Source: Deltaproteobacteria bacterium
GTDB taxonomy: Bacteria > Desulfobacterota > Desulfobacteria > Desulfobacterales > B30-G6
Direction of reading: 5' to 3'
Assembly: GCA_022340465.1 (NCBI GenBank)
Contig: JAJDNW010000006.1
Coordinates: 7,530 to 71,529, forward strand
DNA: 64,000 nt
Shown: piece after piece, positions 4,777-44,116 of the stretch
How the letters are laid out: every line of letters begins with the position of its first letter
Numbering within the stretch: position 1 is the first letter of the stretch
Position numbers and translations under genes: made by a program
The notes under the pieces: model-generated
Database searches by the model: none
Seen by the model: the letters and a program-made list of their open reading frames with translations, nothing else
What the model was told of the DNA's origin: nothing

Positions 4777-5012
4777 TGATAAAACAGGTCGCCGTAATCG
4801 GTATGGGCACCATGGGTAGCCAGATTGGGATTACCTGCGCCGGAGGCGGATTCGATACCATCATGGTGGACACGACCGCCGCCAATATAGAGCGGGGCAT
4901 GGGCGTTGTTCGCGCTTTTCTGGCCGGGCAGGAGAAAAAAGGAAACCCATTTTCAAACCGTAAGGCCGCCGCACTGCAGAGATATTCCTATGTTGAGCAT
5001 TGCAACGGTTAA
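4773..5012 (+). pseudogene. N-terminal fragment of a 3-hydroxyacyl-CoA dehydrogenase-type NAD-binding domain
   Basis: 79-aa ORF with Rossmann start KQVAVIGMGTMGSQIG and continuing helix pattern. It terminates after about 75 residues, 23 nt before the AOR start. Start overlaps the upstream stop (ATGA). Confidence 0.4.
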
Positions 5013-5034
5013 GAATGAATGGAGAAAAGGACAC

Positions 5035-22316: not shown

Positions 22317-22943
22317 TTACGTTGCAAGGGGCCACTGGAGATTCATGGCTTCGAGGTGCCAGCCTGAAGACCGAACGGCAATGATGTTCAATGCCGCCAC
22401 ATCCTGCTTCAACCGGAAAAGATTATGTAAGGGCATGCCCAGAAGGTGGCACAACAATACCCTGTTTGTACCGGCATGGCCCACGATTAGCATGTCGTTC
22501 GCGGGCGGTTGCATGAGCTCCTGGAACCGAAAAACGACTCGCTTCTGAAGATCGAGAAAGGACTCACCGCCCGGCGGCCGGAAATGTGCCATATCTTCAC
22601 CACGGCGTTTGTATGCTTCCGGAAAGCTTTTTCTAACATAGTCGAATTCGAGTCCTTCCCAATCACCCAGGTCAATCTCTTTCAGGTCGGGAAACATCAC
22701 CGGCCGAACGCCGTTTCGCCGGCCGATGATGGCGGCGGTGTCCGCGGACCGCTTCAGGCCGCTGCAGGCGATTCGCTTTAACGGGACAGAGGAAAACCAT
22801 TCGGCCCACCGCTCCGCCTGCCGGATGCCCTTCGCACTCAATGCCGCGTCGGTTTGACCGATGTAGCGCCCGGCGGATGTCTCGGGTGTGTGCCCGTGGC
22901 GCAGCAGGAAGACGGTGACATTTTCAAGTCGAATTCCGTTCAT
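22317..22943 (-). CDS. histidine phosphatase family protein (CobC/PGM-like)
   Basis: 208 aa. VFLLRHGHT (RHG catalytic motif), SGLKRSADTA, GHAGTNRVLL. Confidence 0.8.
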   Translation of the reverse strand: MNGIRLENVTVFLLRHGHTPETSAGRYIGQTDAALSAKGIRQAERWAEWFSSVPLKRIACSGLKRSADTAAIIGRRNGVRPVMFPDLKEIDLGDWEGLEFDYVRKSFPEAYKRRGEDMAHFRPPGGESFLDLQKRVVFRFQELMQPPANDMLIVGHAGTNRVLLCHLLGMPLHNLFRLKQDVAALNIIAVRSSGWHLEAMNLQWPLAT

Positions 22944-22950
22944 GTGACGC

Positions 22951-24087
22951 TCAGGTCGTGATGCCTGCCTTCAGGATGATTTCCATAACTGGCCGGTGAA
23001 CAATCGTTTCTACGCACCGGTCGAACCATAATGCCGCCCGCTTTCGTTTTTGGATTTTTTCCCGGATGTCGGTCCGGTCGCCGTACCGCGCAAGGGCGGC
23101 CTCGAACCTGTTTTCCATGGGAATCACCCGGGTGCCCGACACATACTTATCCGCCAGGTAGAGGATTTCCGCTTCGCCGATCCGGCCGTCTTTCCTGACA
23201 GCGATATCGGTGTGTGAGGCGATGACATCCCCTGTGCGGTCAAATCCCAATGCGGCAAGCCACCTGGCGCCGACCTCGGCGTGGCGGGGGCGGCCTTTGG
23301 CGATGTCGTGGAGCATGGCCGCCGCATGCACCAACCCGACATCGACCCCGCTACCGGCCCTTACGAACGCCGATGCGACGGCGCCGGCTACCTGCGCCAC
23401 CTTGCGGCAGTGGCCGAAGACTTCCTCCGAAACCGGATGGAATTCCCGCAGGATCACGTTGCACTCGACCGCACTCGGCACCTCCATGTGCTCCCAGCGC
23501 CTCAGGGCCTCTTCATATTCGTCCGGCGTATCGATGTCGAACAGGATGTTGGCATCCGGCACGGCCACGTCGATGGCGAGAGCCCCGTTTTCGGCGAGGC
23601 AGGCTTTCAATCCCCCGCCACCCTGCCATTCGAGAATATCCGGTACGGTCGAAACGGGAATGAGCGGCGGATGGCCGCGTTTAGCCTGGAAGGTCGGGTA
23701 GATTATATGGTCCGGTGCGTCCGCAAAGCGGCGGATCAGTTCACGCAGGGTCCGGGGGCGCACCAGCGGAATGTCGACCGGAAGGACCAGGACCCCGGCA
23801 CACGGCGAGCCGAGTCCGGTCAGACCGGTTTTCACCGAGGAAAACATGCCTGCCAGGTAGTGCCGGTTTTCCACGGTTTCAACCCCTGCCGCCTGCAGCA
23901 GCGGGGCCAGTTTTTCCCGATTGTGACCGGTTACGAAGCGAATGCTGTCGATGCCGCACTGCCGGAGAAGACGGATAATGCATTGGGCCGCCGGCAGGTC
24001 GCCCAGCGGCAGCAACGCCTTCTGCCTGCCTATGCGCGAAGACAGGCCTGCCGCCAGTACGACGGCGGTTAGCTTAAACGATGTCAT
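22951..24087 (-). CDS. MobA/MocA-like nucleotidyltransferase fused to an HD domain
   Basis: 378 aa. AVVLAAGLSSRIGRQKALLPL (NTP-transferase P-loop-like motif). C-terminal half has AAMLHDIAKG and a second His-Asp region. Confidence 0.7.
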   Translation of the reverse strand: MTSFKLTAVVLAAGLSSRIGRQKALLPLGDLPAAQCIIRLLRQCGIDSIRFVTGHNREKLAPLLQAAGVETVENRHYLAGMFSSVKTGLTGLGSPCAGVLVLPVDIPLVRPRTLRELIRRFADAPDHIIYPTFQAKRGHPPLIPVSTVPDILEWQGGGGLKACLAENGALAIDVAVPDANILFDIDTPDEYEEALRRWEHMEVPSAVECNVILREFHPVSEEVFGHCRKVAQVAGAVASAFVRAGSGVDVGLVHAAAMLHDIAKGRPRHAEVGARWLAALGFDRTGDVIASHTDIAVRKDGRIGEAEILYLADKYVSGTRVIPMENRFEAALARYGDRTDIREKIQKRKRAALWFDRCVETIVHRPVMEIILKAGITT

Positions 24088-24105
24088 CGGGTCCTTTCGC
24101 CGGCT

Positions 24106-25452
24106 TCAGCCGATGCCGTACTTTTTCATCTTGCGCCACAGGGTGGACTTGTCGATGTCCAGAAATGCGGCGGTTTTTCCGCGGTGCCCCTGGTGGCGTT
24201 TCAAGGCCGCCACGATGGCTTCCTTCTCCGCCTGGTGCAGGCGCAGCGCCGCGGGTGGTGTTTCGCTTTCACCCCGGGCCGCAACTGTTTTCTGCCATTC
24301 GATCTGCCTGATATCGGGGGCGAGATGGTCTGCTTCGATCGTGTCGCCCCGGCACAGCACGAAGGCGTATTCGATGATGTTCTCCAGTTCGCGGATGTTT
24401 CCCGGAAAAGGGTAGCGCATCAGGATTTTCAAGGCTTCGTTCGATATCCCCCTTATGTTTTTGGCTTTAAGCGCATTGAATTTTCGGATGAAGTTGCGGA
24501 CCAGGAGGGGGATGTCCTCCCGGCGGTCTGCAAGGGGAGGGAGCTCGAGCCGGATGACATTGAGACGGTAGAACAGATCTTCCCGGAAGGTTCCCCGCGC
24601 CATGAGTGTCGAGAGGGTCCGGTTGGTCGAGGCGATAATGCGGGCATCGGTCTTTTGGGTGGCGGTGGCCCCCAGCGGTTCGTACTCCTTTTCCTGCAGC
24701 ACCCGCAGCAGTTTTACCTGCAGGGCGGTGGAAATGTCGCCGATTTCATCCAGAAAAAGGGTGCCCCCGGCCGCCCGGGCAAAGCGGCCGGGCTTGTCTT
24801 TTTTTGCTTCGCTGAAAGCACCTTTGCGGTAGCCGAAGAGTTCCGACTCGAGCAGCGTGTCCGGAAGTGCCGCGCAGTTGACGGCCACGAACTCGCCAGC
24901 CTGGCCGCTGACATTGTGAATTGCCCTGGCAAACAGTTCCTTGCCGGACCCGCTGGGCCCCTCGATGAGGATGGTGCTTCCACTGACTGCGATGTCCGGC
25001 AGGATGTCGAAAATCTGCTGCATCTCATAGTTTTTACTGACGATATCCTCGAAACGATATTGGTTGTCTATCTTCTTTCGCAGGGTTTCCACGGTGGTCA
25101 GATCCCTGAAAATTTCAACCCCGCCGATGGTGTGCTCCCTGTCGTCCACGAGCACCGAGGTGCTCACGCTGGCGTCGATGCGTTCCCCCTCGCTGTTCAG
25201 AATATTGACCGATATGTTGATGCCCTGTTTTCCCGATGCCATGGTTTGTCCCAGCGCGCAGGATGTCTGGCATATATTGGCCCGGAATACATCGAAACAC
25301 TTTTTCCCCAGCGCCTGTTTTTTGGACACGCCGGTGATGATTTCCGCGGCGCGGTTGAAATAGGTGATGTTGAAATCGAGATCGATGGTGAACACGCCGT
25401 CGGCAATGGAGTCCAAAATCGTTTCGTAGTGGGCTTTGGTGTCTGTTTTCAT
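24106..25452 (-). CDS. sigma-54-dependent transcriptional activator (PAS-AAA+-Fis HTH)
   Basis: Real start MKTDTKAHYETILDSIADGVFTID (ATG at 25452). PAS, GPSGSGKE Walker A, ESELFGYRKGAFSEA (GAFTGA variant), DEIGD, C-terminal HTH. The 892-aa ORF-track version adds 444 low-complexity residues that cross the intergenic promoter region. Confidence 0.85.
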   Translation of the reverse strand: MKTDTKAHYETILDSIADGVFTIDLDFNITYFNRAAEIITGVSKKQALGKKCFDVFRANICQTSCALGQTMASGKQGINISVNILNSEGERIDASVSTSVLVDDREHTIGGVEIFRDLTTVETLRKKIDNQYRFEDIVSKNYEMQQIFDILPDIAVSGSTILIEGPSGSGKELFARAIHNVSGQAGEFVAVNCAALPDTLLESELFGYRKGAFSEAKKDKPGRFARAAGGTLFLDEIGDISTALQVKLLRVLQEKEYEPLGATATQKTDARIIASTNRTLSTLMARGTFREDLFYRLNVIRLELPPLADRREDIPLLVRNFIRKFNALKAKNIRGISNEALKILMRYPFPGNIRELENIIEYAFVLCRGDTIEADHLAPDIRQIEWQKTVAARGESETPPAALRLHQAEKEAIVAALKRHQGHRGKTAAFLDIDKSTLWRKMKKYGIG

Positions 25453-25545
25453 TCTTATACCTAACTCGAGCGATTTGCGGGTTTGCCGCAGATGCAAGGA
25501 AAAGGTCATTTCGCTGTATTTGAAACGCTCAATGTAAATCACAAT

Positions 25546-25603
25546 ATATTGCAATACTGCAAATAATTGCAACAATAAAATTGCAATAATGCAATTAATT
25601 GCG
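25546..25603. promoter_or_regulatory. array of TGCAA half-sites including two perfect ATTGCAAT palindromes (putative enhancer/UAS)
   Basis: ATTGCAAT at 25548-25555 and 25580-25587 (32 bp apart). More TGCAA at 25558, 25568, 25590. Sits ~100-130 bp upstream of the sigma-54 promoter. A third ATTGCAAT lies at 25732-25739. Confidence 0.55.
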
Positions 25604-25680
25604 CCCGCCTCTGTGCCGTCAATTTTTATATCTAACTGAAATAAAATTAAAAAATAAAATATCGTTGATGTTCCCATTAC

Positions 25681-25696
25681 TGGCACGGAAGATGCT
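25681..25696 (+). promoter_or_regulatory. sigma-54 (-24/-12) promoter
   Basis: TGGCACGGAAGATGCT. GG and GC are exactly 12 nt apart, a good match to TGGCACG-N4-TTGCW. 54 nt before the ATG at 25750. Confidence 0.7.
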
Positions 25697-25749
25697 GTTC
25701 TTAATGGCTGCATGACGGCAATTGGGTATCGATTGCAATGAGGGGCAAC

Positions 25750-26349
25750 ATGAAGCTGGCCATTCCGGTTTTTCATACAAAAATTTCCCCCAGGTTCGAC
25801 GAGACGCAGGGATTTGTTCTTCTGGAGACAGAGGGCGGCAACGTCGTTTCCAGAGAGGAGCTGTCGACGAGGGGATGGTCGGAAATCGAAAAGATAAAGC
25901 AATTGCTGAATCTCGGTGTCGAGACGCTGATTTGTGGCGGCATCGACCGCTCTTCTTTGCAGTATTTGAGTTTCAATGGCGTTCATGTCTTTTCCTGGGT
26001 GACGGGTGAGATCGAAGATGCCGTAACCTGTTTCCTGGACGACCGCATGAAGCCCGGCATCATTTTGGGAGCGCAGGGCAAGATGACGGGGCGGTGGCAG
26101 TTTTGCAAGGGTAGGAATCACGTGTGCAACATGTTTCAGACCGGTTTTTACCATGCTGTTGAGGAGGTGAAGACGATGCCGAAAGGCGATGGAACAGGAC
26201 CGCGCAGCCAGGGACCCCAGTCCGGAAGAGGTCGCGGCGGATGCAAGGGCGGTAAAGGCGGCCGCGGCCAGGGTAGAGGGCAGGGACGCGGGCAGGGCGC
26301 TGACACGGGCCAAGGGCCCAAGTCCGGAGGAGAGAAGGGAAGACGGTAA
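25750..26349 (+). CDS. NifX/NifB-like (MTH1175-like) domain fused in frame to a DUF5320-like Gly/Arg-rich tail
   Basis: N-terminal KLAIPV...ISPRFDETQGFVL...ICGGID resembles dinitrogenase FeMo-cofactor-biosynthesis-like domains. From 26176, MPKGDGTGPRSQGPQSGRGRGGCKGG... matches the MPxGDGTGPxGxGPxTGRG start of DUF5320 proteins. GAGGAGGTG lies 6 nt before that internal ATG. Confidence 0.75.
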   Translation: MKLAIPVFHTKISPRFDETQGFVLLETEGGNVVSREELSTRGWSEIEKIKQLLNLGVETLICGGIDRSSLQYLSFNGVHVFSWVTGEIEDAVTCFLDDRMKPGIILGAQGKMTGRWQFCKGRNHVCNMFQTGFYHAVEEVKTMPKGDGTGPRSQGPQSGRGRGGCKGGKGGRGQGRGQGRGQGADTGQGPKSGGEKGRR

Positions 26350-26560
26350 GCACGTGTTGGAATAAAGCGCCCGCATCGGGCTGGCCGGAGAGATTGGCTC
26401 GCGGCGAGCCGGGATGGTGCGCGAGGAAAAACAGACGAATGCCTGACGGGGGTGTGTAGCGCACCGTGAGGCGGAACATCCCCTGCGGCTTGCCGTAGCA
26501 AAGTGCAGGTCACGACCCTCGGGGCGTGCCTGCCGGAGGGGATCGAAATGGGATGCAGAG

Positions 26561-26941
26561 ATGATGCGAACAATCGTTGCCGGCACGGCGTTGGCTGCCG
26601 CGTCGGCCTTCATAGAAACAATTAAAGCAAACAGCGTCAGGGTGCTGAGCCTGGACACTGCCGGGGAAGCGATTGCAGCGCTGTCAGCAGGGGGGTTCGA
26701 CCTGCTGGTGGCGGCGGAAGATTTGGGGGACATGTCGGGGCTCGAACTGATCGAAGCCGTGGTCAAATCGAGCCCCATGCTCAACTGCGCCGTGGTGAGC
26801 TCGCTTTCGCCCGAAGACTATCATGAGGCCAGCGAGGGGTTGGGGATATTGATGCAGCTGCCCCCCGACCCCGGACCGGAGGAAGCCGTGGCACTGGTCA
26901 ACCATCTGAAAAAGATTCGATCGTTCGGGGTGGGGCCATGA
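26561..26941 (+). CDS. receiver-like (CheY-fold) protein, degenerate
   Basis: 126 aa. DLLVAAEDLGDMSGLELIE resembles the phospho-acceptor region, but the N-terminal acidic pair is absent. Stop overlaps the next start (ATGA). Confidence 0.5.
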   Translation: MMRTIVAGTALAAASAFIETIKANSVRVLSLDTAGEAIAALSAGGFDLLVAAEDLGDMSGLELIEAVVKSSPMLNCAVVSSLSPEDYHEASEGLGILMQLPPDPGPEEAVALVNHLKKIRSFGVGP

Positions 26942-27786
26942 TTATCAGCGTAGCAAGCGGTAAAGGCGGAACCGGCAAAACGACCGTGGCCACCAATCTT
27001 GCGGTTGCCATCGGCGAGGGCGTGCAGCTTATGGATTGCGACGTCGAAGAGCCCAATGCCCACTTGTTCGTTGCGCCGTCCATGGACCGATCGCGAACCG
27101 TTTTTACCATGGTGCCCGAAATCGACGAGCAAAAATGCACTCTGTGCCGCAAGTGTGTGGAGATCTGCCGTTTCAAGGTGATCGCCATTGCCGGCAAAAC
27201 CATCCTGACGTTCCCGGAGCTTTGCCACAGCTGCGGCGGCTGTACGGCCGTGTGCCCCGAGGGGGCCGTTGCCGAGGGCCGACGTGAACTCGGGGAACTG
27301 GAGCAGGGATCGTTCCGGGCCGGGTATTTCGCCCACGGTCGCCTGCGGGTCGGTGAGGCCATGTCGCCCCCGCTGATCAGGGAAGTCAGATCACAGGCCA
27401 GACCGGACATGGTCAATATCATCGATGCCCCTCCCGGGACCTCCTGTCCGGTGATAGCGGCCATGAAGGATACGGATTTTGTGGTCATGGTCACGGAGCC
27501 AACCCCTTTCGGCCTCCACGATTTAAAACTGGCTGTCGAAGCGGTGAAACTGTTGAAGATACCCCACGGCCTGGTGATTAACCGCTCCGATATGGGCAAT
27601 GACATGGTGAGGGCGTATGCGCAGGCGGAAAATCTTCCGATTCTGATGGAGATACCCTTTGATAGAAAGATCGCGGAGGCTTATTCCAGGGGCATCCTGA
27701 TGGTGGATGCTCTGCCGGAGTGGCGGGAAAAGTTTAAAGGGCTGTTTGAGAGCATCACTTTTTATAGTTCTGTTGAGAAGACATGA
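26938..27786 (+). CDS. MinD/ParA-type P-loop ATPase with inserted 2x[4Fe-4S] ferredoxin domain
   Basis: 282 aa. Deviant Walker A SGKGGTGKTT, then CTLCRKCVEICRF and CHSCGGCTAVCP, then IIDAPPGTSCPV. Confidence 0.85.
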   Translation: MIISVASGKGGTGKTTVATNLAVAIGEGVQLMDCDVEEPNAHLFVAPSMDRSRTVFTMVPEIDEQKCTLCRKCVEICRFKVIAIAGKTILTFPELCHSCGGCTAVCPEGAVAEGRRELGELEQGSFRAGYFAHGRLRVGEAMSPPLIREVRSQARPDMVNIIDAPPGTSCPVIAAMKDTDFVVMVTEPTPFGLHDLKLAVEAVKLLKIPHGLVINRSDMGNDMVRAYAQAENLPILMEIPFDRKIAEAYSRGILMVDALPEWREKFKGLFESITFYSSVEKT

Positions 27787-27932
27787 TACCACACATTGAA
27801 AATGTTAACCGGCTTAACTTACTGACGCTGAACGTTGTCAAAACACCTTTCCATTGGATATCCGCATTGATGAATACAAAGAAAGAAAAAATTCTTGCTT
27901 TAACTCCCTTCATCTTCCACCGGCGGCTGTTA

Positions 27933-27948
27933 TGGAAACTTTGTTGCT
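27933..27948 (+). promoter_or_regulatory. candidate internal sigma-54 promoter
   Basis: TGGAAACTTTGTTGCT. GG/GC spacing is correct (12 nt), the -12 TTGCT is perfect, and the -24 keeps only TGG. TATGGAAAC is duplicated 20 nt downstream. Lies in an AT-rich 213-nt spacer, 52 nt before the ATG at 28000. Confidence 0.35.
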
Positions 27949-27999
27949 ATATGGAAACCTCACCGGCTGAGCCGGTGGCTTGTGAAGGGAGTTAAGCGC

Positions 28000-28869
28000 A
28001 TGAAAGAGTTGGTCATTCTAAGCGGCAAGGGTGGAACCGGAAAGACGAGTCTGACGGCAGCTTTTGCCTCGATTGCCGAAAACAGCGTGCTTTGCGATGC
28101 GGATGTGGATGCCGCCGACCTGCACCTCCTGATGAACCCGGTCGTGCGGGAACGCATGGAATTTATGGGGGGCAACCTGGCCGCCATCGACCCCGGCAGA
28201 TGCTCTCAGTGCGGCCAGTGCATCGATCTCTGCCGCTTCGACGCCATTTCCAGCGATTTCGTGGTCGATGAAATCGACTGTGAAGGCTGCGGCGTCTGTG
28301 TCGATTTCTGCCCCGAGCAGGCCATCGATTTTCCAATCAACAAATGCGGCGAGTGGTATATTTCCGAGACCCGCTTCGGTCCCATGGTGCATGCGAGGCT
28401 GGGCATTGCCGAGGAGAATTCCGGAAAGCTCGTGACCCTCGTTCGGCAGGAGGCCGGCAAACTGGCTGAATCCACAAAGCGGGAGTTGATTATTACGGAC
28501 GGCCCCCCGGGTGTGGGTTGCCCGGTAATTGCTTCGGTGGGAGGGGCCACGGCCCTCCTGGTGGTCACGGAGCCGACGGTATCGGGAGTGCATGACATGC
28601 AGCGCCTGCTGGACCTCGCCGCTTATTTCAAGGTTCCCAGCATGGTTTGTGTGAACAAATACGACTTGAATCCGGAGCAGAGTGCGGCCATCAAGGAGCT
28701 GGCGGACGAAAAGGGCATACCGTATGTCGGTAACATCCCCTTCGATCCCCAGTTTGTCGAATCCATGGTTGCGGGCAAAACGGTTCTGGAGCATCGACCG
28801 GATGGTGAATTGGGCGCTATTGTCAAGCAAGTTTGGGCGAGTGTCCAGGGAGAAATGAACATTAACTGA
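28000..28869 (+). CDS. MinD/ParA-type P-loop ATPase with inserted 2x[4Fe-4S] ferredoxin domain (paralog)
   Basis: SGKGGTGKTS Walker A, CSQCGQCIDLCRF and CEGCGVCVDFCP, ITDGPPGVGCPV. ATG at 28000; the ORF-track GTG at 27982 is less likely. Confidence 0.85.
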   Translation: MKELVILSGKGGTGKTSLTAAFASIAENSVLCDADVDAADLHLLMNPVVRERMEFMGGNLAAIDPGRCSQCGQCIDLCRFDAISSDFVVDEIDCEGCGVCVDFCPEQAIDFPINKCGEWYISETRFGPMVHARLGIAEENSGKLVTLVRQEAGKLAESTKRELIITDGPPGVGCPVIASVGGATALLVVTEPTVSGVHDMQRLLDLAAYFKVPSMVCVNKYDLNPEQSAAIKELADEKGIPYVGNIPFDPQFVESMVAGKTVLEHRPDGELGAIVKQVWASVQGEMNIN

Positions 28870-28886
28870 CAGGGAGAATTGGATCT

Positions 28887-29279
28887 ATGCAAAACGGAAG
28901 GATAGCAGTCCCCTCGAACGGGGCAGGCGGCTTGGACGGTATGCGGGCAGGACACTTCGGACATTGTGATGTCTTTACCTGCATCGACGTCGAGGACGGT
29001 GAGATAAAGAATGTTTCCATTATTCAGAACGAGGAGCATGTTCAGGGCGGTTGCATGGTGCCGGTGAATCTTCTGGCAGGCCACAAGGTCAATGCCCTGA
29101 TTGTGGGGGGCATCGGCATGCGGCCGCTGATGGGTTTCAAACAGGTGGGCATCGACGTGTACCACGATGCCGTAAGACCGGAGATACGGCCGGTGGTGGA
29201 AGATCTGATCGCCGGCAATCTGCCGGAGATTCGCAGCGATCAGGTGTGCGGCGGCGGTGGCGGTCGTATGGCGTCTTAA
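28887..29279 (+). CDS. NifX/NifB-like (MTH1175-like) domain protein
   Basis: 130 aa. RIAVPSNG...HFGHCDVFT...LIVGGIGMRP pattern of the dinitrogenase FeMo-cofactor biosynthesis domain family. Confidence 0.8.
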   Translation: MQNGRIAVPSNGAGGLDGMRAGHFGHCDVFTCIDVEDGEIKNVSIIQNEEHVQGGCMVPVNLLAGHKVNALIVGGIGMRPLMGFKQVGIDVYHDAVRPEIRPVVEDLIAGNLPEIRSDQVCGGGGGRMAS

Positions 29280-29300
29280 TATGGAAGAGGGGAGCAGGAA

Positions 29301-29660
29301 ATGAAAATTGCCGTTACATCTCAGGGAACGGATTTAGATGCACAGGTTGACCCCAGGTTCGGCCGCGCCAAGTATATTCTGATTATCGACATGGACGATG
29401 GCAATCTGGAAGTTCTGGACAACGCCGAAAATGTGAACGCCTTCAAGGGGGCGGGCATTCAGGCGGCAGCTAGCGTGGGCGACAGGGGGGCTGACGTGTT
29501 GCTGACAGGTTACTGCGGTCCCAACGCGTTCAAGACCCTGGCCGCGGCCGGGGTCAAAGTGGCCAATGACGCTTCCGGAACGGTCAGGGAGGCGGTGGCG
29601 GCTTTCGAGGAGGGCCGGTTGACCATCGCCGACGGGGCCAATGTGGATGGCCATTGGTAA
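29301..29660 (+). CDS. NifX/NifB-like (MTH1175-like) domain protein
   Basis: 119 aa. KIAVTSQG...VDPRFGRAKYILIID...LLTGYCGPNAFKTL, the canonical form of this family. Confidence 0.8.
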   Translation: MKIAVTSQGTDLDAQVDPRFGRAKYILIIDMDDGNLEVLDNAENVNAFKGAGIQAAASVGDRGADVLLTGYCGPNAFKTLAAAGVKVANDASGTVREAVAAFEEGRLTIADGANVDGHW

Positions 29661-29859
29661 CAGACGGGCAGTAATGTCCCATAGGGGGAGTAGATGAGCT
29701 CATAGCTGCCAGGTCATCGTTCATGGCACGCTATCAGCTATGCGTTATGCGCTTTTTCCTCCTCGCCCCTGGGCCCCCATGCCTTCGGCTTTAGCGGAAG
29801 GTGATTGACTTTGATTATAAAACGTTATGAACCTCAACCTTGAGGTGAACCGTTTTCGA

Positions 29860-29922
29860 CACCACCGGCAGAAATCTTCCCTCTCTGGAAACCAAAGCCA
29901 GATTCCCTCGCTGCCGGTGGTG
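29860..29922. repeat. perfect 12-bp inverted repeat CACCACCGGCAG-N39-CTGCCGGTGGTG in a 414-nt non-coding gap
   Basis: Read directly. The 39-nt spacer contains a nested TCTGG/CCAGA pair. No convincing ORF spans it. Confidence 0.6.
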
Positions 29923-30073
29923 TTGAAGTCCTCGAGTCGTTTTTCGGTCGGGACGGTATCTTCCCCCCGGTTGTCGATCAACCTTCGTTTGGACTATAGG
30001 TTATTAAAATTGATTTGTTATTTTGCATCCTTGTGGTTCAAAATGCATCAGGAAAAATGTGGTGCAGGGAGGG

Positions 30074-30505
30074 ATGATGAACGACAGGGATTTTGATTTC
30101 TTTCGGGACCATTCGAGAAACTATCTCGAGATGGCCCTCACCAGGGATCGGCAGGAATCGATGGCCAACCCTGACGGCTACGGTCGACGAACCGGCGTCT
30201 GCGGGGACACCGTGGAAATATTCTTAAAGGTCGGGCAAGGCCGTGTGGAGAGCGTTTCCTACCAGTTGGACGGGTGCATCAACACGAATGCCTGCTGCAA
30301 CACCGTCGCCGTGATGGCCGAAGGGAAGAGCATCGACAGCGCCTGGGGCATTACGCCGGAAAAAGTGATCGATTTTCTGGGGACACTCCCGCCGGAGAAT
30401 GCCCACTGCGCCGAACTGGCTGTAGGGGCGTTGTACCTCGCGCTTGCCAACTGCAGGGAACTCGGCCGCCATCCCTGGAAAAAGGCATACAGCGTTCACC
30501 GGTGA
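30074..30505 (+). CDS. IscU/NifU-N-like Fe-S cluster scaffold protein
   Basis: GVCGDTVEIFL...VSYQLDGCINTNAC...NAHCAELAV: three-Cys scaffold pattern (C-G-D, internal C, H-C). ATG at 30074 after GCAGGGAGGG. Confidence 0.75.
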   Translation: MMNDRDFDFFRDHSRNYLEMALTRDRQESMANPDGYGRRTGVCGDTVEIFLKVGQGRVESVSYQLDGCINTNACCNTVAVMAEGKSIDSAWGITPEKVIDFLGTLPPENAHCAELAVGALYLALANCRELGRHPWKKAYSVHR

Positions 30506-30560
30506 CCTGCATCGGGAGCGATGCGTCGACCACGGCTGTAAATCAATCAAGGAGGGGAGC

Positions 30561-30914
30561 ATGGCGAATTTTTTGTTTGTGCTGAGTAAGGATGACAACC
30601 AAAAGGCGACGCGTTGTTTTCAGTTCGCCAAAATTGCCGCCGAGAAGGGGCATGACGTAAATTTGTTTTTCGTAGACGGCGGGGTTATGTGGGCCGACTC
30701 CACCAGGGATTTCAACACAGCGACCACCACCGGGGACTGCCCCAATGATTACCTGCCGTATATTGTGGAGAATGAAATCCCCATCGGCGTCTGAATCCCC
30801 TGTGCCAAGGCTCGTCAGGTTGACGAGAGCAATTTTTTCAGCAACATGGCACTGGATGGCGCCCCCCGTCTCATCGACCTTGCTGCGGAAGCAAGGGTGT
30901 TCAACTTTGACTGA
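30561..30914 (+). CDS. DsrE/DsrF-like protein, predicted selenoprotein (TGA 30792-30794 read as Sec)
   Basis: ATG after GGAGGGG. The DsrE-like fold sequence stops at ...ENEIPIGV-TGA, but the same frame stays open for 39 more codons (IPCAKARQVDESNFF...AEARVFNFD) to TGA at 30912, completing the family C-terminus and giving a U-I-P-C motif. Hairpin CTCGTCA-GGT-TGACGAG at 30811-30827. Confidence 0.7.
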
Positions 30915-30926
30915 TAAGGAGAGATC

Positions 30927-32282
30927 ATGAAAAAAGGAGAAAAGCTTGTCATCGTAGGGTGCAGTGGCTCAGGGGGGCCGGCTGCCATGCGCGCGCGCCA
31001 ATTGATGCCCGATATCGACATAACGGTCATCCGCAAGGAAAAGTGTTTCATCGTCAGGTGAGCGCTTCCGCATGTGGTGGCCGGTCTGGCTGCCGGGGAA
31101 TCGGTGATTATGCCCGACAAAATGCTTGAAAACGCCGGAATCAACGTTGTCAGAGACGAGGTGGACCAGGTGGATCCCAAGAGTCGACGCGTGATGACGA
31201 CCGGTGGTAAAACGTTTGCATATGACAAATTGTACCTGGCCATGGGGGCCAGCCCCTTTATTCCGCCCATCGAGGGAAAGGACCTGAAGGGGGTCGTGGC
31301 ATTGCGCGGCCTATCCGATGCTGAAAACATCAGAGCATACATGGCCGAAGAAAAACCCAGAAATATTATTTTCATCGGTGCGGGCTTTATCAGCATGGAA
31401 ATTGCCTCGCTGATAGCGCAACACATGCCCTATAACTACAACATCAAGGTGATCGAACTCATGGACCGGCCGCTTCCACTGATGCTGGATAAAGAGATGG
31501 CGGAACTGGTCCAGTCCTATCTTGAGAAAAAGGGGATCGGTGTCCTGACCGGGAAGAAGGTGGAAAAACTGACCGGGCAGAATGGGAAAATCGCTGCCGT
31601 GGAACTGGCTTCCGGTGAAAAATTCGCTGCGGACCTGGTGTTTATGAACGTGGGCGTACGGCCCAACGGTAAGCTCGCCATGGACATGGGCCTTGAAATG
31701 GGCCAGTTCGGCATCAAGGTGAACGCCTATCAGGAAACGTCGGACCCCCACATCCTGGCAGGAGGCGACTGCGTCGAAAAGATCAATTTCATTACCCAGA
31801 AGCCAACGCCGGGGCAGCTTCGCGGGCCGGCGGTGCTCCAGGGACGCCTGGCAGCCAAACGGCTGGCCGGGTTCGACATTCCCTTTCCGGGCGTCGTGGA
31901 CGCGGGCGGCTGCAAAATGTTCGATCTCACCATTACGGCCACCGGCCTTACCGAAGAACGCGCCGCCCAGGAGGGCATCGAAACCATTTGCTCCGTGGTC
32001 GATTCCCGCAGCAAGCACAACATGATACCGGGCACGCAACCATGGAAGATCAAATTGGTGTTCAACAAGCACAACCAGGAGCTGATCGGTGGACAGATCG
32101 TCAGCCGCGATGTGGGACCGGCAAGGGAAATCGATGCCGTTACCGCCTTTATCCTGGGCAGGAAGACCATTGCGGACCTGACCACGTTTACGTCCGCCTG
32201 CAATCCGGACATCTCGTCGGAACCGAGTGCCGAACCGATTACCATTGCGGCGGAACAAGCCCTGGGAAGACTGAGACCGTAA
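30927..32282 (+). CDS. CoA-disulfide reductase / NADH oxidase family flavoprotein, predicted selenoprotein (TGA 31059-31061 read as Sec)
   Basis: ATG at 30927 gives MKKGEKLVIVGCSGSGGPAAMRARQL...KCFIVR-TGA-ALPHVVAG in the same frame as the 402-aa ORF at 31074. The TGA aligns with the redox Cys of the SFANC(A/G)LPY motif. The GxGxxG FAD fold lies only upstream of the TGA. Hairpin GGTGGCC-GGTCT-GGCTGCC at 31076-31094. Confidence 0.75.
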
Positions 32283-32326
32283 CCTCGCCATATCTCAGAT
32301 CGGACCCCTGGCTTATTTAATGACGT

Positions 32327-32361
32327 ATCTCTACCCTGGTCCTTTGGGCCAGGGTAGAGAT
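32327..32361 (+). terminator. strong hairpin after the selenoprotein operon
   Basis: Perfect 13-bp stem ATCTCTACCCTGG-N9-CCAGGGTAGAGAT, 45 nt after the stop at 32282. No U-tract, so factor-independent termination is not certain. Confidence 0.5.
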
Positions 32362-32707
32362 AGTTGGCTGTGACGGTAATAGGGGTAATAAAATTCCAAA
32401 CACCAAATCCGAAATCTCATATTTGGGTTAACGTGTTTCTTGGGTTTATTGGGCTCATTGGGTTAGCGGTTTAACGACCCCAACCGTTCGTTTTTTTTAA
32501 CCGCAGACAATCGCGGACACAAAAAAACTCAACGAACACAACAAACGCAATGAACAACACGCTTACAGGGTGAAACCTGTGCCGAGCCCTGCGAGCGGGG
32601 GTATCTACGTGAACCTTATGGTTGCATAAACAGTCTGGCAAGCGTATATTGTAATTCACCCTTGGGCTGAGCGTTTCAAATAATAGGAATCGATTAAGGA
32701 GGCCGGC

Positions 32708-33730
32708 GTGTATGCATTGAATTTCGACCCCGCCATCTGTGAATCGTGCGACACCTGCGACTGCCTGATGAAGTGCCAGTACATGCACTTTGACCTTGCG
32801 GAGGCCAGGCAGGAGAAGGCCAACATCAACAACGGCGGGCCATCGCGGGTGTTGACCGAATGCGCCACTTGCTATGCCTGTGAAGAGTACTGCCCCAACG
32901 ACAACCATCCTTTTTACCTGATCGTCGAGCGCCAGGAAGCGTTGGGCATCCTGCCTTCGCCTGCGCCCATCACCCGCCAGCAGATTCTGATGATGAAGCC
33001 CAGGGGAACCATTATTCCGGAGAAGGTCAGCCCCCCGGTGATCGACATGTGCTATTTCCCCCCGCTGACCGCAGGCATAAAGGAACCGCTTTATGAAAAT
33101 CCATCCGTCATCGTGGGGAGTGATATCTTCTGCAACATCATGTGGCTGCATTTTGCCCGCAACTCCGTTATCAGAGAGCGGCTTCCCAGGGTCATAGACA
33201 ATATATGGCAGTATTATTTGCGGGACAGCGGTGTCGAGGAGCTGATCTGCTTTCACGACGAATGCTATGCAACCTTCAGCCACCTGGCGCCGGCATTTAA
33301 TATCGATGTGCCTTTTCGGCCTGTGCATGTGTTCGAGTATATAGCCGGCAGGCTGGAAACGCTGAAAGACAGGATTACGCCGCTCAATGCAAAGGTGGCC
33401 TACCAGCGCCCCTGCTCGAACCGGCTGATACCGGAAACGCAGCACTGGGTGGATGACATTTTTGAAAAAATAGGGGCTGAAAGGGTGGCGCGCAGGTACG
33501 ACCGGGAAAATGCGCTGTGCTGCGGTCAGGTTCTGAGGGCCCATCAAAGGGATGACACGGCCGACGACCTGCAGGCCCGCAACCTGGGCGATATGAAGGC
33601 GACGGGGGCGGCTTACTGCGTCTTCAACTGCCCCGCCTGCATGATGACCCTCGCGGAACCCGCCGCTGAACAGGGGTTGTTTCCCATTCACCTGAGTGAC
33701 CTCTGCCAACACGCACTGACGTCGTCATGA
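32708..33730 (+). CDS. HdrD-like Fe-S/CCG-domain oxidoreductase subunit
   Basis: 340 aa. CESCDTCDCLMKC and CATCYACEEYCP cluster motifs, followed by cysteine-rich CCG-type regions (NALCCG, FNCPACMMT). GTG start 6 nt after AAGGAGG. Confidence 0.75.
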   Translation: MYALNFDPAICESCDTCDCLMKCQYMHFDLAEARQEKANINNGGPSRVLTECATCYACEEYCPNDNHPFYLIVERQEALGILPSPAPITRQQILMMKPRGTIIPEKVSPPVIDMCYFPPLTAGIKEPLYENPSVIVGSDIFCNIMWLHFARNSVIRERLPRVIDNIWQYYLRDSGVEELICFHDECYATFSHLAPAFNIDVPFRPVHVFEYIAGRLETLKDRITPLNAKVAYQRPCSNRLIPETQHWVDDIFEKIGAERVARRYDRENALCCGQVLRAHQRDDTADDLQARNLGDMKATGAAYCVFNCPACMMTLAEPAAEQGLFPIHLSDLCQHALTSS

Positions 33731-33756
33731 CCGGGACGCAACAGGAGGGGAGGCCT

Positions 33757-35135
33757 ATGACCGAAATGTACGCTAGACTCGTGGAGATCGTCGGCTCGGG
33801 ATTCGTGTCCGATGCTCCGGAGGAAAAGTATATCTATGCCATGGATCCCGGAACCATGCCGGCCTGCGAACCGGACATGGTGGTCATGCCGGGGAGTACG
33901 GCCGAGGTCCGGAAGATCGTGCTGGCCGCCAATGAATTCCATGTGCCTCTGATTCCGCTGGGAGCGGGACTGGTGCTTTCAGGATTGTCCCGGGCCTTGA
34001 AAGGCGGCGTCATCGTGGACATGAAAAGGATGAACCGCATTCTGGAAGTCAATGCCGTGAGCCGTTATGCACTGGTGGAAGCAGGAACATCCCAGGGGAT
34101 GCTCAAGGCCCACCTGCAAAAGCACTATCCGGGCCTCAAGCATTCGATGCCGGATGCCCCTCCGGCTGCGACCATCGCAGGGAATATATGCATACACGGG
34201 TCCGGTCACCTCTCGCACGTGGGTGGATTTCATTCCGAGATGCTCAACGGTTTGGAAGTGGTGCTGCCCACCGGTGAAATTGTCAACATCGGTTCCTGCG
34301 CCACCTCCCCGTACTGGTTTGCCAGGGCCCCGCTGCCGGACCTGGCAGGGCTTTTTCTGGGATGGGCCGGAACGACGGGCATCATAACCAAGCTGTCCAT
34401 AAAGCTGTATCCCAACCATCCCATCAACGATGTGGGCGTGTTCGTCTGCGAGGATGCCGATCTTATGCCGGATATTTTGAACCGATTGACGGGTGCGCAG
34501 CTCGCGGAGGACATCACCACCTGGATGACGCCCAAACCGGACTGGGCCGAGGGCTTCCTGCATTGTAATGTCAATTACGGCGCCGGGTCCAAGGAGGAGC
34601 TCGTCTGGAAACGCAACTTGATTCGATCGGCGGTGGCCGGCTATATCGATGACAAGACCGGGGGCTTTCTGCCGCTGCCGGCGATGATGAAGAAGAGATT
34701 CCTGGAGGTTCCCGCCACGCAGCTTTCCCGGTTTGCGGACGTCCGCAAAGGCGGGGGGTTCGAATATGTGGGCGCCATCATGCCGGTGGAATTTTTCCCC
34801 GATGCCTATGCCTTAGGCCTGGAAGTCGCCCGCCAAACGGGCGTGAGCTACTCCATGGGCTGCCGTGTGGTCGGCGTCAATCACTGCATGATGTTTTTCT
34901 ATGCCTATGCCTTCAACCGGGCGGACGCCGCCGATGTGGCCAGGGCCCAGGAAGCGCTGGGGGAAACCAACAAGCGGGTCGTGGCGATGGGCGGTATTCC
35001 CTGGAAAGCCGAGGAACCCGCCCAGAAGGAGATTCTCAGCAAGATGGATCCCAACATGTTCGCCATGATGAACCGGGTGCGGGAGACACTGGATCCCAAC
35101 GGTATCATGAATCCCGGGAACTGGGAGGCTGGCGT

Positions 35136-35139
<4 letters not shown>
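33757..35139 (+). CDS. FAD-binding oxidoreductase (GlcD / D-lactate dehydrogenase-like, FAD_binding_4)
   Basis: VVMPGSTAEVRKIV...PLIPLGAGLVLSG FAD-binding PCMH pattern; C-terminal LDPNGIMNPG. ATG at 33757 after AGGAGGGG. Confidence 0.8.
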
Positions 35140-36308
<1,169 letters not shown>

Positions 36309-39537: not shown

Positions 39538-40995
39538 ATGATAAGATCAAGCAGCGGTGGGATAGACACTGTCCGGTTTTTAAAGGACAGTGACATGCAG
39601 AAGATTCATGAGCAGGCGCTATACCTGTTGGAGAATACCGGCATCGGCATCGAGCACCAGGTAGGCATGGAGATGCTCGAAAATACCGGCGCTGTTGTGG
39701 ATTACGACAAGAAAACAGCCCGCTTTTCAGCGTCGCTGGTGGAAAAGTGCCTGGCATCCGTACCCCGTAAAATCACCCTGGCCGGCAGAAATCCGGAGCG
39801 AGACCTGATCCTGGAACCAGGCGGCACCATTCGGACCCGCAATACCGGCGGGATGACCCAGATACACGACCTTGAAACCGGGGAAATCAGAGAATCCGTT
39901 CTTTCTGACACGGCCGACTTTGCCAGGCTCTTGGACGGACTGGACAACATCGATTTCATTGCGCCTCTATATGCGGCCGACGTGCCCCTTGAAATCCTGG
40001 AGCTCCAGGTGCTGGAAACCATGATGTGCAATACGGACAAGCATATCAACATCCGGGCTCTAGACAAAAGGACCTTTCCCTATCTTATCAAGATGGGCGA
40101 GATCGTGGCCGGCGGTAAGGAAGCTTTGAAAAAGCGACCGGTCATCAGCATTCTCGAAGCACCCATTTCCCCGCTGGTATTCCCCGATGTTTTTGTTGAT
40201 TCGCTCCTTTTAGGCGGGGAGGCCGGAATACCAATCGAAATCTGTTCTATGCCCAACGTGGGCGGAACCGGACCGATTACCCTGGCGGGATCGCTGCTGC
40301 TATCGACGGTCGAACACCTGGCGACCATTGTCATTTCACAGACGGGTTGTCCGGGGGCGCCCCTAGTCTGGGCATCGCGCTTCCCGGCCCTGGACATGAA
40401 GACCGGCAACACTGGCATGCTCACGGAGGGTGCCCTGGTGTCGGCGGCGGCCGCCCAGTTGGCATCGGAACACTACAACCTAATCTGCGACCTGCACGGC
40501 CCGGCCACCAATGCTGTCAACCCGGAAGGCGAGTCCGTCTTCGAAGAGTGCATCGGTGCGTTCGTGACGGGCTTTGCTGGGCGCCCGGCCGTTCTGTGCG
40601 GTGCAGGCGGGATGGAGCTGGGCATTGCCACCAGCTTCGAGCAGCTGGTCATCTCCAATGAGATTTATGCGGTGTTCCGCAGAGTACTGGAAGGATTTGT
40701 TGTCAATGACGATACGCTGGGCATGGATGCCATCGCTCAGGCGGGGATCGGTGGCAATTACCTGGGAGAACAGCACACCCTCGACCACCTGCGCAGCGAA
40801 CGGTTGAATTCCGACCTGCTGAAACCGAAAACAAGGGCCAAGTGGCTCGAAGAGGGCTCTAAAAGCCTGGTTGACCTGGCCCGTGAAAAAGCACGCGCCA
40901 TCCTGGCGGAGCACAAACCGGCGCGCCTGGACGACGCCACCCTGGCAAGCCTCAAAGCACTTGTCAAGAAGGCACAAAATGAATTCACCGGCTAA
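39538..40995 (+). CDS. MttB-superfamily (trimethylamine methyltransferase-like) protein, non-pyrrolysine
   Basis: 485 aa, uninterrupted (no in-frame TAG). LSDxxxxKIHEQAL.LLE.TG., [23 protein letters not shown] blocks are typical of PF06253-type proteins as I remember them. Confidence 0.8.
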   Translation: MIRSSSGGIDTVRFLKDSDMQKIHEQALYLLENTGIGIEHQVGMEMLENTGAVVDYDKKTARFSASLVEKCLASVPRKITLAGRNPERDLILEPGGTIRTRNTGGMTQIHDLETGEIRESVLSDTADFARLLDGLDNIDFIAPLYAADVPLEILELQVLETMMCNTDKHINIRALDKRTFPYLIKMGEIVAGGKEALKKRPVISILEAPISPLVFPDVFVDSLLLGGEAGIPIEICSMPNVGGTGPITLAGSLLLSTVEHLATIVISQTGCPGAPLVWASRFPALDMKTGNTGMLTEGALVSAAAAQLASEHYNLICDLHGPATNAVNPEGESVFEECIGAFVTGFAGRPAVLCGAGGMELGIATSFEQLVISNEIYAVFRRVLEGFVVNDDTLGMDAIAQAGIGGNYLGEQHTLDHLRSERLNSDLLKPKTRAKWLEEGSKSLVDLAREKARAILAEHKPARLDDATLASLKALVKKAQNEFTG

Positions 40996-44070: not shown

Positions 44071-44116
44071 CATAGCCGATAGTGTATAGTTCATCGTCTA
44101 CTATCAGCTATGAACT
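44071..44116. promoter_or_regulatory. overlapping inverted repeats in the leader of the first FGGY kinase gene
   Basis: CATAGCCGATAGT (44071-83) pairs with ACTATCAGCTATG (44100-12), 12 of 13. AGTTCAT (44088-94) pairs with ATGAACT (44110-16). The two pairings are mutually exclusive. Ends 34 nt before the ATG at 44150. Confidence 0.4.

Follow-up and report, generated by a model that had tools for sequence, protein, structure and literature searches.

The question raised by this locus is what purpose is served by a single array of genes for NifX-like proteins, ferredoxin-containing ATPases, an IscU-like scaffold and two selenoproteins, placed opposite the gene of a sigma-54 activator. The locus lies in a 64-kb stretch of contig JAJDNW010000006.1 of a sulfate-reducing Deltaproteobacteria bacterium from sediment (hereafter the window, meaning the whole stretch that was analysed), and an initial annotation had left its function unassigned while suggesting a regulated pipeline for metalloclusters. 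Domain content, residues and gene order identify it as the orp (ORange Protein) system known from Desulfovibrio vulgaris Hildenborough, in a variant form belonging to the Desulfobacterales. With a probability of roughly 0.6, this variant is a module that assembles and stores metal-sulfur clusters, is switched on at low redox potential and has its own supply of sulfane sulfur. The pipeline idea fits the gene-neighbourhood data presented below, as an inference and not as a demonstration.

The anatomy of the locus was established from the open reading frame (ORF) listing, translation and Pfam scans of the window. For comparison, we used 80 genome loci carrying Orp3/4 genes from bacteria and archaea, in which neighbours were counted within 10 kb, and 80 loci at 75-84% identity from a metagenome scan for the gene of the DsrE-like selenoprotein, hereafter DsrE(Sec), Sec standing for selenocysteine; relative loci and contigs fetched from genomes and metagenomes carry labels between L003 and L147. 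The array consists of nine ORFs on the + strand (g1 to g9), separated by a 297-bp intergenic region from the divergent activator gene. The initial annotation had counted ten genes; the number is nine because the DUF5320-like piece (from M143 of g1) is an in-frame tail of g1, with no stop codon between it and the NifX domain. The domains that had been named (three NifX-like proteins, two MinD/ferredoxin ATPases, and IscU-like, DsrE-like and CoA-disulfide reductase (CoADR)-like proteins) were all recovered with Pfam, each at the position given below. Four public metagenome contigs contain the same DNA as the window locus, and its closest genome-resolved relatives are uncultured Desulfobacterales. 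The contig L003, considered as a variant with other genes after g3, was rejected as such, its DNA being 99.9% identical and only the gene call differing.

In D. vulgaris Hildenborough, the divergent sigma-54 operons orp3-4-5 and orp7-8-9 flank orpR (DVU2106) in the cluster DVU2103-2109. The orp genes are controlled by a circuit of sigma-54, integration host factor (IHF) and OrpR (PMC3897727), and a complex of five ORP proteins has been purified (PMC6345978). Orp3 and Orp4 are paralogs with two [4Fe-4S] motifs, Orp5 is a homolog of small [2Fe-2S] proteins, Orp8 is the orange protein, of about 12 kDa and NifX fold, that binds a Mo-Cu sulfide cluster, and Orp9, or MrpORP, is an Fe-S carrier combining Mrp/NBP35 and Di-Nase parts, which passes Fe-S clusters to Orp3/4 (PMC6345978). 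The initial annotation had named DVU2103-2109 as a comparable cluster with no assigned function: the cluster is real and the comparison the right one, while "no assigned function" is only half right, the cluster having a name, a literature and an unproven role in cell division that is proposed "putatively" (PMC6345978, PMC8359166, PMC3897727).

The counterparts of this core are found in the middle of the array. Both g3 (26938-27786, + strand; Orp3 type) and g4 (28000-28869, + strand; Orp4 type) combine a P-loop ATPase with inserted iron-sulfur motifs, g3 being a MinD/CbiA/ParA-type protein with an inserted 2x[4Fe-4S] ferredoxin domain and g4 a paralog, 31% identical to it, with two inserted 4Fe-4S motifs; such tandem Orp3/Orp4 paralogs are kept in 77-80 of the 80 genome loci. 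The NifX-like g5 (28887-29279, + strand; PF02579, 64.7 bits) carries a C-terminal Cys and the GHFGHCD motif described in PMC6345978, has positions 266-364 of the MrpORP model as its best NCBIfam match, and by sequence is an NifX-fold protein like the Di-Nase part of MrpORP. Among solved structures, the one closest to g6 (29301-29660, + strand; PF02579, 84 bits) is that of the D. gigas ORP (2WFB; E = 3.7e-25 over the full length, residues 2-114, about 50% identical), and on this similarity g6 is an orange protein (Orp8/ORP) homolog. In three relatives (L010, L014 and L016), whose Orp3 is 67-72% identical to g3, a MrpORP protein scores 500-518 bits against the curated NCBIfam cut-off of 450; since that model is passed, the homologous neighbourhoods of the relatives are bona fide orp clusters.

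The activator encoded at 24106-25452 (- strand, 448 aa) is, by its sequence features, of the OrpR type. The PAS, Sigma54_activat (210 bits) and Fis-type helix-turn-helix (HTH_8) domains of the sigma-54 activator seen initially were confirmed with Pfam, and Cys52, Asp54, Cys61 and Cys65 of its PAS domain occupy positions identical to those in D. vulgaris Hildenborough OrpR. The PAS domain of OrpR holds a [4Fe-4S] redox sensor, for which Cys52, Cys61 and Cys65 are required and Asp/Glu54 is conserved, and the protein is active only at low redox potential combined with high sulfide (PMC8359166); the window activator probably senses low redox potential via a [4Fe-4S] cluster on its three PAS cysteines. 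In more than 20 of the fetched loci, the activator next to the orp cluster combines the pattern C-x-[DE]-x6-C-x3-C with a GAFTDA-type loop, the unusual loop of DVU2106 (PMC4641369); in the lineage of the window, the AAA+ loop reads GAFSEA. OrpR-type activators with the Cys triad and a GAFTDA or GAFTGA loop were also observed beside Orp3/4 in metagenome-assembled genomes of Planctomycetota and Ignavibacteria (L035, L075, L088 and L070); the 2021 OrpR paper describes OrpR as confined to delta-proteobacteria.

The predicted sites between the activator gene and g1 have the layout expected for an enhancer-binding-protein site followed by a sigma-54 promoter. The -24/-12 element TGGCACggaagATGCT (25681-25696, + strand; TGGCAC-N5-ATGCT) is one of only three sites in the 64 kb with at most one mismatch to TGGCAC-N5-TTGCW; when two mismatches are allowed, its frequency in the window does not exceed that in shuffled sequence. 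Taken by itself, the motif would be weak evidence, and the call of a near-consensus promoter, made already in the initial annotation, gains weight because its position fits and because L089 and L147 have equivalent motifs (TGGCAY-N5-xTGCW) between their TGCAA block and first gene. This block, the putative enhancer (25545-25597), consists of four TGCAA repeats that form two exact TTGCAAT-N2-TGCAA palindromes (25549-25562 and 25581-25594), 32 bp apart and about 90-130 bp upstream of the promoter. Only three exact matches to the palindrome exist in the 64 kb, two of them being those of the enhancer, and L089 and L147, at a protein identity of only about 76%, have preserved the fourfold TGCAA block in their DNA sequence. 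The interval between enhancer and promoter is an A/T-rich tract, and a search of 25595-25680 for the IHF consensus WATCARNNNNTTR with at most one mismatch gave no match.

Two further proteins precede the ATPases. The first, g1 (25750-26349, + strand), joins a NifX/IPR003731 domain (PF02579, 39 bits) to a tail of 57 residues rich in Gly, Arg and Lys, with one Cys and zero aromatics. The DUF5320 similarity noticed initially lies in this tail; it was seen again, at 20.5 bits and thus below the cut-off of 27, and belongs to no separate gene. The same fusion of NifX and DUF5320-like parts is present in the relatives L116 and L147, and a separate, complete DUF5320 gene is intact in L089, L116 and L147; the 211-bp spacer after g1 (26350-26560, + strand) is apparently a degenerate or deleted remnant of that gene. 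The protein encoded by g2 (26561-26941, + strand) is receiver-like at 24.7 bits, below the cut-off of 30.2, and its naming as a pseudo-receiver was borne out: CheY/Spo0F have an acidic pair and a Lys that are missing from its family, whose members vary at the phospho-acceptor site (A, D, A, D, Q, D); g2 therefore cannot depend on phosphorylation. The family occurs in 11 genome loci and beside DsrE(Sec) in four metagenome loci.

The last three genes encode a scaffold and two selenoproteins. A divergent IscU/NifU_N-type scaffold is encoded by g7 (30074-30505, + strand), which matches PF01592 at 58 bits (cut-off 22), retains the IscU ligand set of three Cys, one Asp and one His in the motifs VCGD, DGC and LPPxxxHC (AHC), and stays below all equivalog cut-offs (best 68 bits against 187.9 for TIGR03419). 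A Pfam scan of the cluster genes returned no cysteine desulfurase gene. The call of two selenoproteins was upheld for g8 and g9, each having an in-frame TGA at the position of the catalytic Cys, then a hairpin resembling a selenocysteine insertion sequence (SECIS).

In the DsrE-like g8 (30561-30914, + strand; DsrE, 68 bits), the TGA at 30792-30794 encodes Sec78 in the motif V-U-IPC-AK, aligning with Cys78 of A. vinosum DsrE (2HY5), the site that carries persulfide. Across the metagenome set, the window and the genome relatives, this codon is TGA in 80 sequences and TGC in three. A hairpin (CUCGUCA-GGU-UGACGAG, 30811-30827) follows 18-34 nt past the UGA; the stem being invariant, we used synonymous-site constraint instead of covariation, and found among 73 distinct sequences a third-codon entropy of 0-0.5 bits in the stem and of 0.95-1.9 bits in the flanks and loop. 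As this constraint on third codon positions shows selection on RNA structure, the hairpin is a SECIS element. Downstream of DsrE(Sec) in L144 (1693-2625) and L147 (9416-10348), we observed a radical-SAM family with an N-terminal GPVPSRRxGxSLG motif, which co-occurs with Orp3/4 in 14 of the 80 genome loci; together with free NifX-fold proteins, it resembles a split NifB.

The flavoprotein encoded by g9 (30927-32282, + strand; Pyr_redox_2, Pyr_redox and Pyr_redox_dim) belongs to the family of NADH persulfide/polysulfide reductase (Npsr) and CoADR. Its best solved relative is the A. fulgidus enzyme AfNpsr (6PFZ), followed by CoADR-rhodanese, CoA-persulfide reductase and Pyrococcus CoADR, with lower scores for Nox and Npx; the CoADR equivalog TIGR03385 gives 257.8 bits against a cut-off of 578.8. 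Sec45, encoded by the TGA at 31059-31061 (codon 45) in FIVR-U-ALPH, aligns with the single redox-active Cys, near residue 43, of CoADR/Npsr/Nox enzymes (6PFZ and 6RUZ). Of the 120 best homologs in the database, almost all are cut down to some 400 residues, and every inspected neighbourhood of a g9 ortholog has a 44-codon ORF just upstream; the orthologs therefore have the same in-frame UGA. A Cys form of the family exists (P0002). The hairpin after the UGA (GGUGGCC-GGUCU-GGCUGCC, about 31076-31094) shows changes from G-U to G-C or A-U among relatives, and, since it lies over a conserved peptide that the Cys form has as well, is the weaker, non-independent evidence for a SECIS element. Ending at residue 451, g9 has no C-terminal rhodanese domain, which in Npsr is the first to accept sulfur; the substrates reduced by Npsr-type enzymes are persulfides and polysulfides. 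Orthologs of g9 with Sec or Cys in L005, L006 and L007/L008 were observed near Cys-rich-PAS sigma-54 activators, thioredoxins, DUF1638 and RACo-type activases, and in L011 a RACo gene follows the CoADR-family gene of an orp cluster; such neighbours hint at a role of CoADR-like proteins in low-potential reductive activation.

On the reading as an assembly and storage module, the parts would work together as follows. At low potential, the OrpR-type activator would bind the fourfold TGCAA enhancer and open the sigma-54 promoter. NAD(P)H would reduce FAD and Sec45 of the g9 enzyme, which would in turn reduce the sulfur of persulfides or polysulfides, perhaps presented to it in trans on Sec78/Cys81 of g8 much as on the rhodanese domain of Npsr. 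The sulfur thus released or relayed might combine with iron on the IscU-like g7 to form Fe-S (or Mo/W-S) units, and these units could be parked on, or passed among, the NifX-fold carriers, transfer being driven by the Orp3/4 ATPases and g2 acting as a phosphorylation-independent receiver-like adaptor. The proposal builds on what was observed of domain identities, catalytic and ligand residues, Sec-decoding signals, conservation of regulatory elements and synteny; the direction of sulfur flow we infer. A wider version would see in orp a cysteine-desulfurase-independent line of cluster assembly and storage for anaerobes rich in sulfide or sulfane sulfur, fed here by a "split Npsr", in which the DsrE-like selenoprotein would take the place of rhodanese and pass persulfide sulfur to the Sec-containing CoADR-type reductase and then to the IscU-type scaffold, and gated by an Fe-S-sensing sigma-54 switch; so broad a claim is speculative, and we consider it rather unlikely to hold in full.

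Several observations speak against the module. In D. vulgaris, the phenotype of orp mutants is an altered cell morphology and not an Fe-S defect (PMC8359166, PMC3897727), and the sole cofactor isolated on ORP is the Mo-Cu sulfide cluster (PMC6345978). The 64-kb window contains neither a homolog of MrpORP (Orp9) nor a match to an Orp5-type small Fe-S protein (Zn_ribbon_8/FmdB-like); the latter family, presumably Orp5, is present in 21 related loci. A structured spacer of 413 bp (29661-30073, + strand), with a palindromic hairpin and then a T-run, splits g6 from g7 in the window. Orthologs of g9 with Sec or Cys (70-75% identity) mostly lie outside an orp context (L005, L006, L007 and L091), orp-type neighbours occur at only 15 of the 80 DsrE(Sec) loci (11/49 among those whose upstream sequence extends to 1 kb or more), and the clusters of some relatives stop at DsrE or run into a radical-SAM gene, with no CoADR.

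The points on the spacer and the selenoproteins would also suit two unrelated neighbours, an orp operon g1-g6 and a separate module g7-g9 under its own regulation for thiol/persulfide homeostasis or for detoxifying O2 or peroxide, all the more as DsrE(Sec) is mostly solitary, the g9 family has historically been called "NADH oxidase" (PMC1794560), and its members elsewhere accompany thioredoxins, thioredoxin-reductase-like genes, flavodoxin and RACo near other PAS-sigma-54 activators. We regard this alternative as unlikely, if still one to be taken seriously, since the comparisons tie g7-g9 to the orp genes in several ways. Gene order is kept in at least six independent contigs with spacers of about 70-144 bp: the activator and all nine genes stand in the same order in L089/L090 (proteins about 79% identical, downstream flanks different), where the g6-g7 spacer is 144 bp long and has no sigma-54 motif, and L103, L116, L137, L144 and L147 repeat the order NifX-NifX-IscU-DsrE(Sec), the ORP and IscU genes being some 70 bp apart. 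Among the 80 genome loci, 24-27 have an IscU-like gene no farther than 10 kb from Orp3/4 (about 30%, where we estimate from copy number some 1-2% by chance), often directly beside MrpORP; these loci come from Desulfobacterota, Chloroflexota, Planctomycetota, Acidobacteriota, Firmicutes and Bathyarchaeia, so that the IscU link, which the initial annotation had singled out with the selenoproteins as a possibly informative addition, is not special to this locus. In different lineages, DsrE(Sec) adjoins four orp-type genes (IscU-like, g1-type NifX, pseudo-receiver and Orp4), and a Cys-type CoADR-family gene (30-32% identical to g9) follows the ORP gene by 4 bp in L011 and by about 220 bp in L010, which looks like non-orthologous displacement in the same slot. 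Finally, no sigma-70-like promoter was found on the + strand of the g6-g7 spacer. In our reading of these neighbourhoods, orp systems would regularly include the IscU-like protein as an accessory, DsrE(Sec) would accompany them recurrently in Desulfobacterales, the CoADR-type reductase would be the most facultative addition, and g7-g9 would be co-transcribed with g1-g6. The co-occurrence of carrier and ATPase genes with IscU-, DsrE- and CoADR-like genes, on which the initial interpretation leaned, was thereby found. The link to selenoproteins proposed with it is real and recurs in several arrangements, but, as far as the fetched loci go, is confined to some Desulfobacterales lineages, most orthologs of either selenoprotein lying elsewhere in the genome.

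What the orp core does is a separate matter, on which the recurrent neighbours of Orp3/4 bear: IscU, DUF5320, Zn-ribbon Fe-S proteins, radical SAM, metallo-beta-lactamase-fold proteins, DUF134, ARMT1-like, CGGC, Fur, FeoB and DsrE. These families fit metal-sulfur handling and not cell division. A system that positions or controls the division septum, with the MinD-like Orp3/Orp4 as spatial regulators and the metal centres as redox sensors alone, would account for the morphological defects of D. vulgaris Hildenborough orp and orpR mutants (PMC8359166, PMC3897727), the polar location of MrpORP (PMC6345978), the MinD-like C-terminal amphipathic helices reported for Orp3 and Orp4 and the weak MinD-family matches of g3. 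It appears improbable to us, given that no min or fts gene is found in any recurrent neighbour family of the genome loci, that the cluster is common among archaea and in phyla that divide by other machinery, and that the D. vulgaris authors themselves call the role unclear (PMC8359166). Much the same low probability goes to the handling of thiometalates, in which ORP and its NifX paralogs would store or detoxify the Mo, W or Cu sulfides of sulfidic water or deliver Mo/W to cofactor synthesis. This would agree with the similarity of about 50% identity between g6 and the D. gigas carrier of [S2MoS2CuS2MoS2] (PMC6345978), with a MocA/MobA-like NTP_transf_3+HD gene 19 bp downstream of orpR and with a tungsten-type aldehyde:ferredoxin oxidoreductase in the window; against it, no Mo/W transporter and no moa/moe gene is among the recurrent neighbours, which are related to iron and Fe-S, the MocA-like gene is not kept in L089 or L147, and MrpORP and Orp3/4 bind Fe-S clusters (PMC6345978). 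That g8 and g9 mobilise selenium instead of sulfur for a Se-containing cofactor, a variant raised in the initial annotation, is suggested by the mere presence of Sec in both proteins and is very improbable: Sec simply stands in place of a catalytic Cys, Cys forms of both families existing at that position, the cluster has no selD, selA, yqeB/yqeC or sulfurtransferase-type Se-cofactor genes, a tRNA scan of the 64-kb window gave no tRNA-Sec, and nothing favours selenium over sulfur.

The remaining features concern spacers, hairpins and flanking genes. Between g3 and g4, an inverted repeat (27900-27995, + strand) with 25-nt arms that are 84% complementary and a loop of 46 nt fills most of the spacer; it may be an element of RNA processing or stability that sets the Orp3:Orp4 ratio, and the 70-codon ORF that overlaps it in one metagenome annotation (27783-27995) is probably spurious. 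The g6-g7 spacer (z = -3.8) is about 270 bp longer than the spacers of relatives and contains, besides the T-run after the hairpin, a 17-bp stem CGACACCACCGGCAG..CUGCCGGUGGUGUUG (about 29858-29925) and the palindrome CATAGCTG..CAGCTATG (29701-29742), which holds a sigma-54-like TGGCAC-N5-CAGCT. A second sigma-54 promoter at 29724 (TGGCACgctatCAGCT) was considered and rejected; we read the site as a hairpin because it lies inside a palindrome copied at 44071, has no TGCAA enhancer nearby and has no counterpart in L089. The second copy, at 44071-44112 upstream of a FGGY kinase gene, suggests a small hairpin element that occurs in repeated copies. The hairpin that closes the array (32326-32362, + strand; z = -4.1, no U-tract) had been placed at 32327-32361 with a 13-bp stem and was found to have a perfect stem of 17 bp. 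An Rfam scan of 24000-33000 at E <= 1 returned no RNA family in the spacers.

On the activator side, the MocA/MobA-like NTP_transf_3+HD gene, 19 bp from the orpR stop codon, is followed by a His_Phos_1 phosphatase gene (22317-24087, - strand, for both), and a molybdenum-cofactor link to the Mo-binding orange protein is possible. On the other side (32708-36308) lie genes for a CCG-domain protein, a FAD_binding_4 oxidase and a Fer4_8+CCG protein, which together resemble a glycolate/lactate oxidase and include HdrD-like subunits; these were considered as the client of the cluster and rejected because they are unlinked to it in L089. Farther out, the window contains the tungsten-type aldehyde:ferredoxin oxidoreductase (4906-6963), two MttB-family methyltransferase paralogs (39538-40995 and 47059-48519) and a large sigma-54 activator of 1049 aa (54521-57670). 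Homologs of DUF134, radical SAM, metallo-beta-lactamase-fold, FeoB and Fur proteins were searched for in the 64-kb window and none was found.

The core orp system is already known and named, and the finding is not categorically new. New with respect to the literature consulted are the single-operon architecture of Desulfobacterales with its different enhancer, the components of IssA-like and pseudo-receiver type, the wide spread of the IscU link, and the recurrent ties to a DsrE-like selenoprotein and CoADR-family reductases. The ORP complex is kept in strict anaerobes from Desulfobacterota to Bathyarchaeia, and the literature offers for it a tentative link to division alone. The present locus and its relatives tie the orp core to an IscU-type scaffold, an IssA-like storage-type protein, persulfide carriers and enzymes of the persulfide-reductase type, and from these neighbourhoods a testable alternative to division can be put forward, namely the assembly or storage of clusters from inorganic or sulfane sulfur under reducing conditions. 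In addition, two orphan selenoprotein families, "DsrE-like" and "NADH oxidase", are placed in a definite genetic setting, from which their first biochemical study could take direction.

Compared with the orp systems of D. vulgaris Hildenborough and D. alaskensis G20, the window locus shares an activator of PAS(Cys3)-AAA+-HTH architecture beside its presumed targets, the sigma-54 promoter, the Orp3/Orp4-type pair with 2x[4Fe-4S], the Orp8 homolog, extra NifX-fold proteins and an anaerobe-only distribution. It differs in having one operon with all structural genes on the + strand instead of two divergent ones. It also has a different enhancer (TTGCA-N4-TGCAA in place of GGGCGYRTTTTGCGCCC), lacks the IHF consensus, carries GAFSEA instead of GAFTDA, and adds a tailed IssA-like NifX protein, the pseudo-receiver and the IscU-like, DsrE-like(Sec) and CoADR-like(Sec) proteins. 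IssA (PF2025) is a thioferrate iron-sulfur storage protein of Pyrococcus furiosus, and "IssX" denotes its uncharacterised mesophilic relatives (PMC5524996). As in IssA/IssX, the N-terminal IPR003731 domain of g1 is followed by an unstructured, Gly-rich tail of high pI with one Cys; the tail differs from that of IssA in having 0 aromatics (IssA, 14/70) and no proline-rich linker, and in scoring as the N-terminus of DUF5320. Like issA, the window operon would be expected to be on when sulfide is abundant.

The accessory proteins can be set beside characterized systems in the same way. With the IscU/NifU_N scaffolds of the ISC and NIF systems, g7 shares the three Cys, the Asp of CGD, the His of HC and the LPP of LPPVK, and it differs from them in its divergent N-terminus and in having no adjoining cysteine desulfurase or chaperone genes. 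The fold family and the reactive residue of g8 are those of the DsrE/TusD relay (A. vinosum DsrEFH, E. coli TusBCD), but g8, small and carrying a U-x-x-C motif, stands alone, without DsrF/H partners and outside any dsr or tus context; it falls into the "DsrE-like" selenoprotein family, known from genomics alone and listed, like "NADH oxidase", among selenoprotein families since 2005-2006 (PMC1794560). The FAD/NAD(P)H/dimerisation architecture of g9 is that of AfNpsr (6PFZ), Shewanella Npsr, Pyrococcus CoADR/NSR and Enterococcus CoA-persulfide reductase. Like this Npsr/CoADR clade, which it matches better than Nox/Npx, g9 has a single redox-active chalcogen before (A/G)LP(H/Y); it departs from the clade in having Sec for Cys and no rhodanese domain, and is by its sequence a putative reductase.

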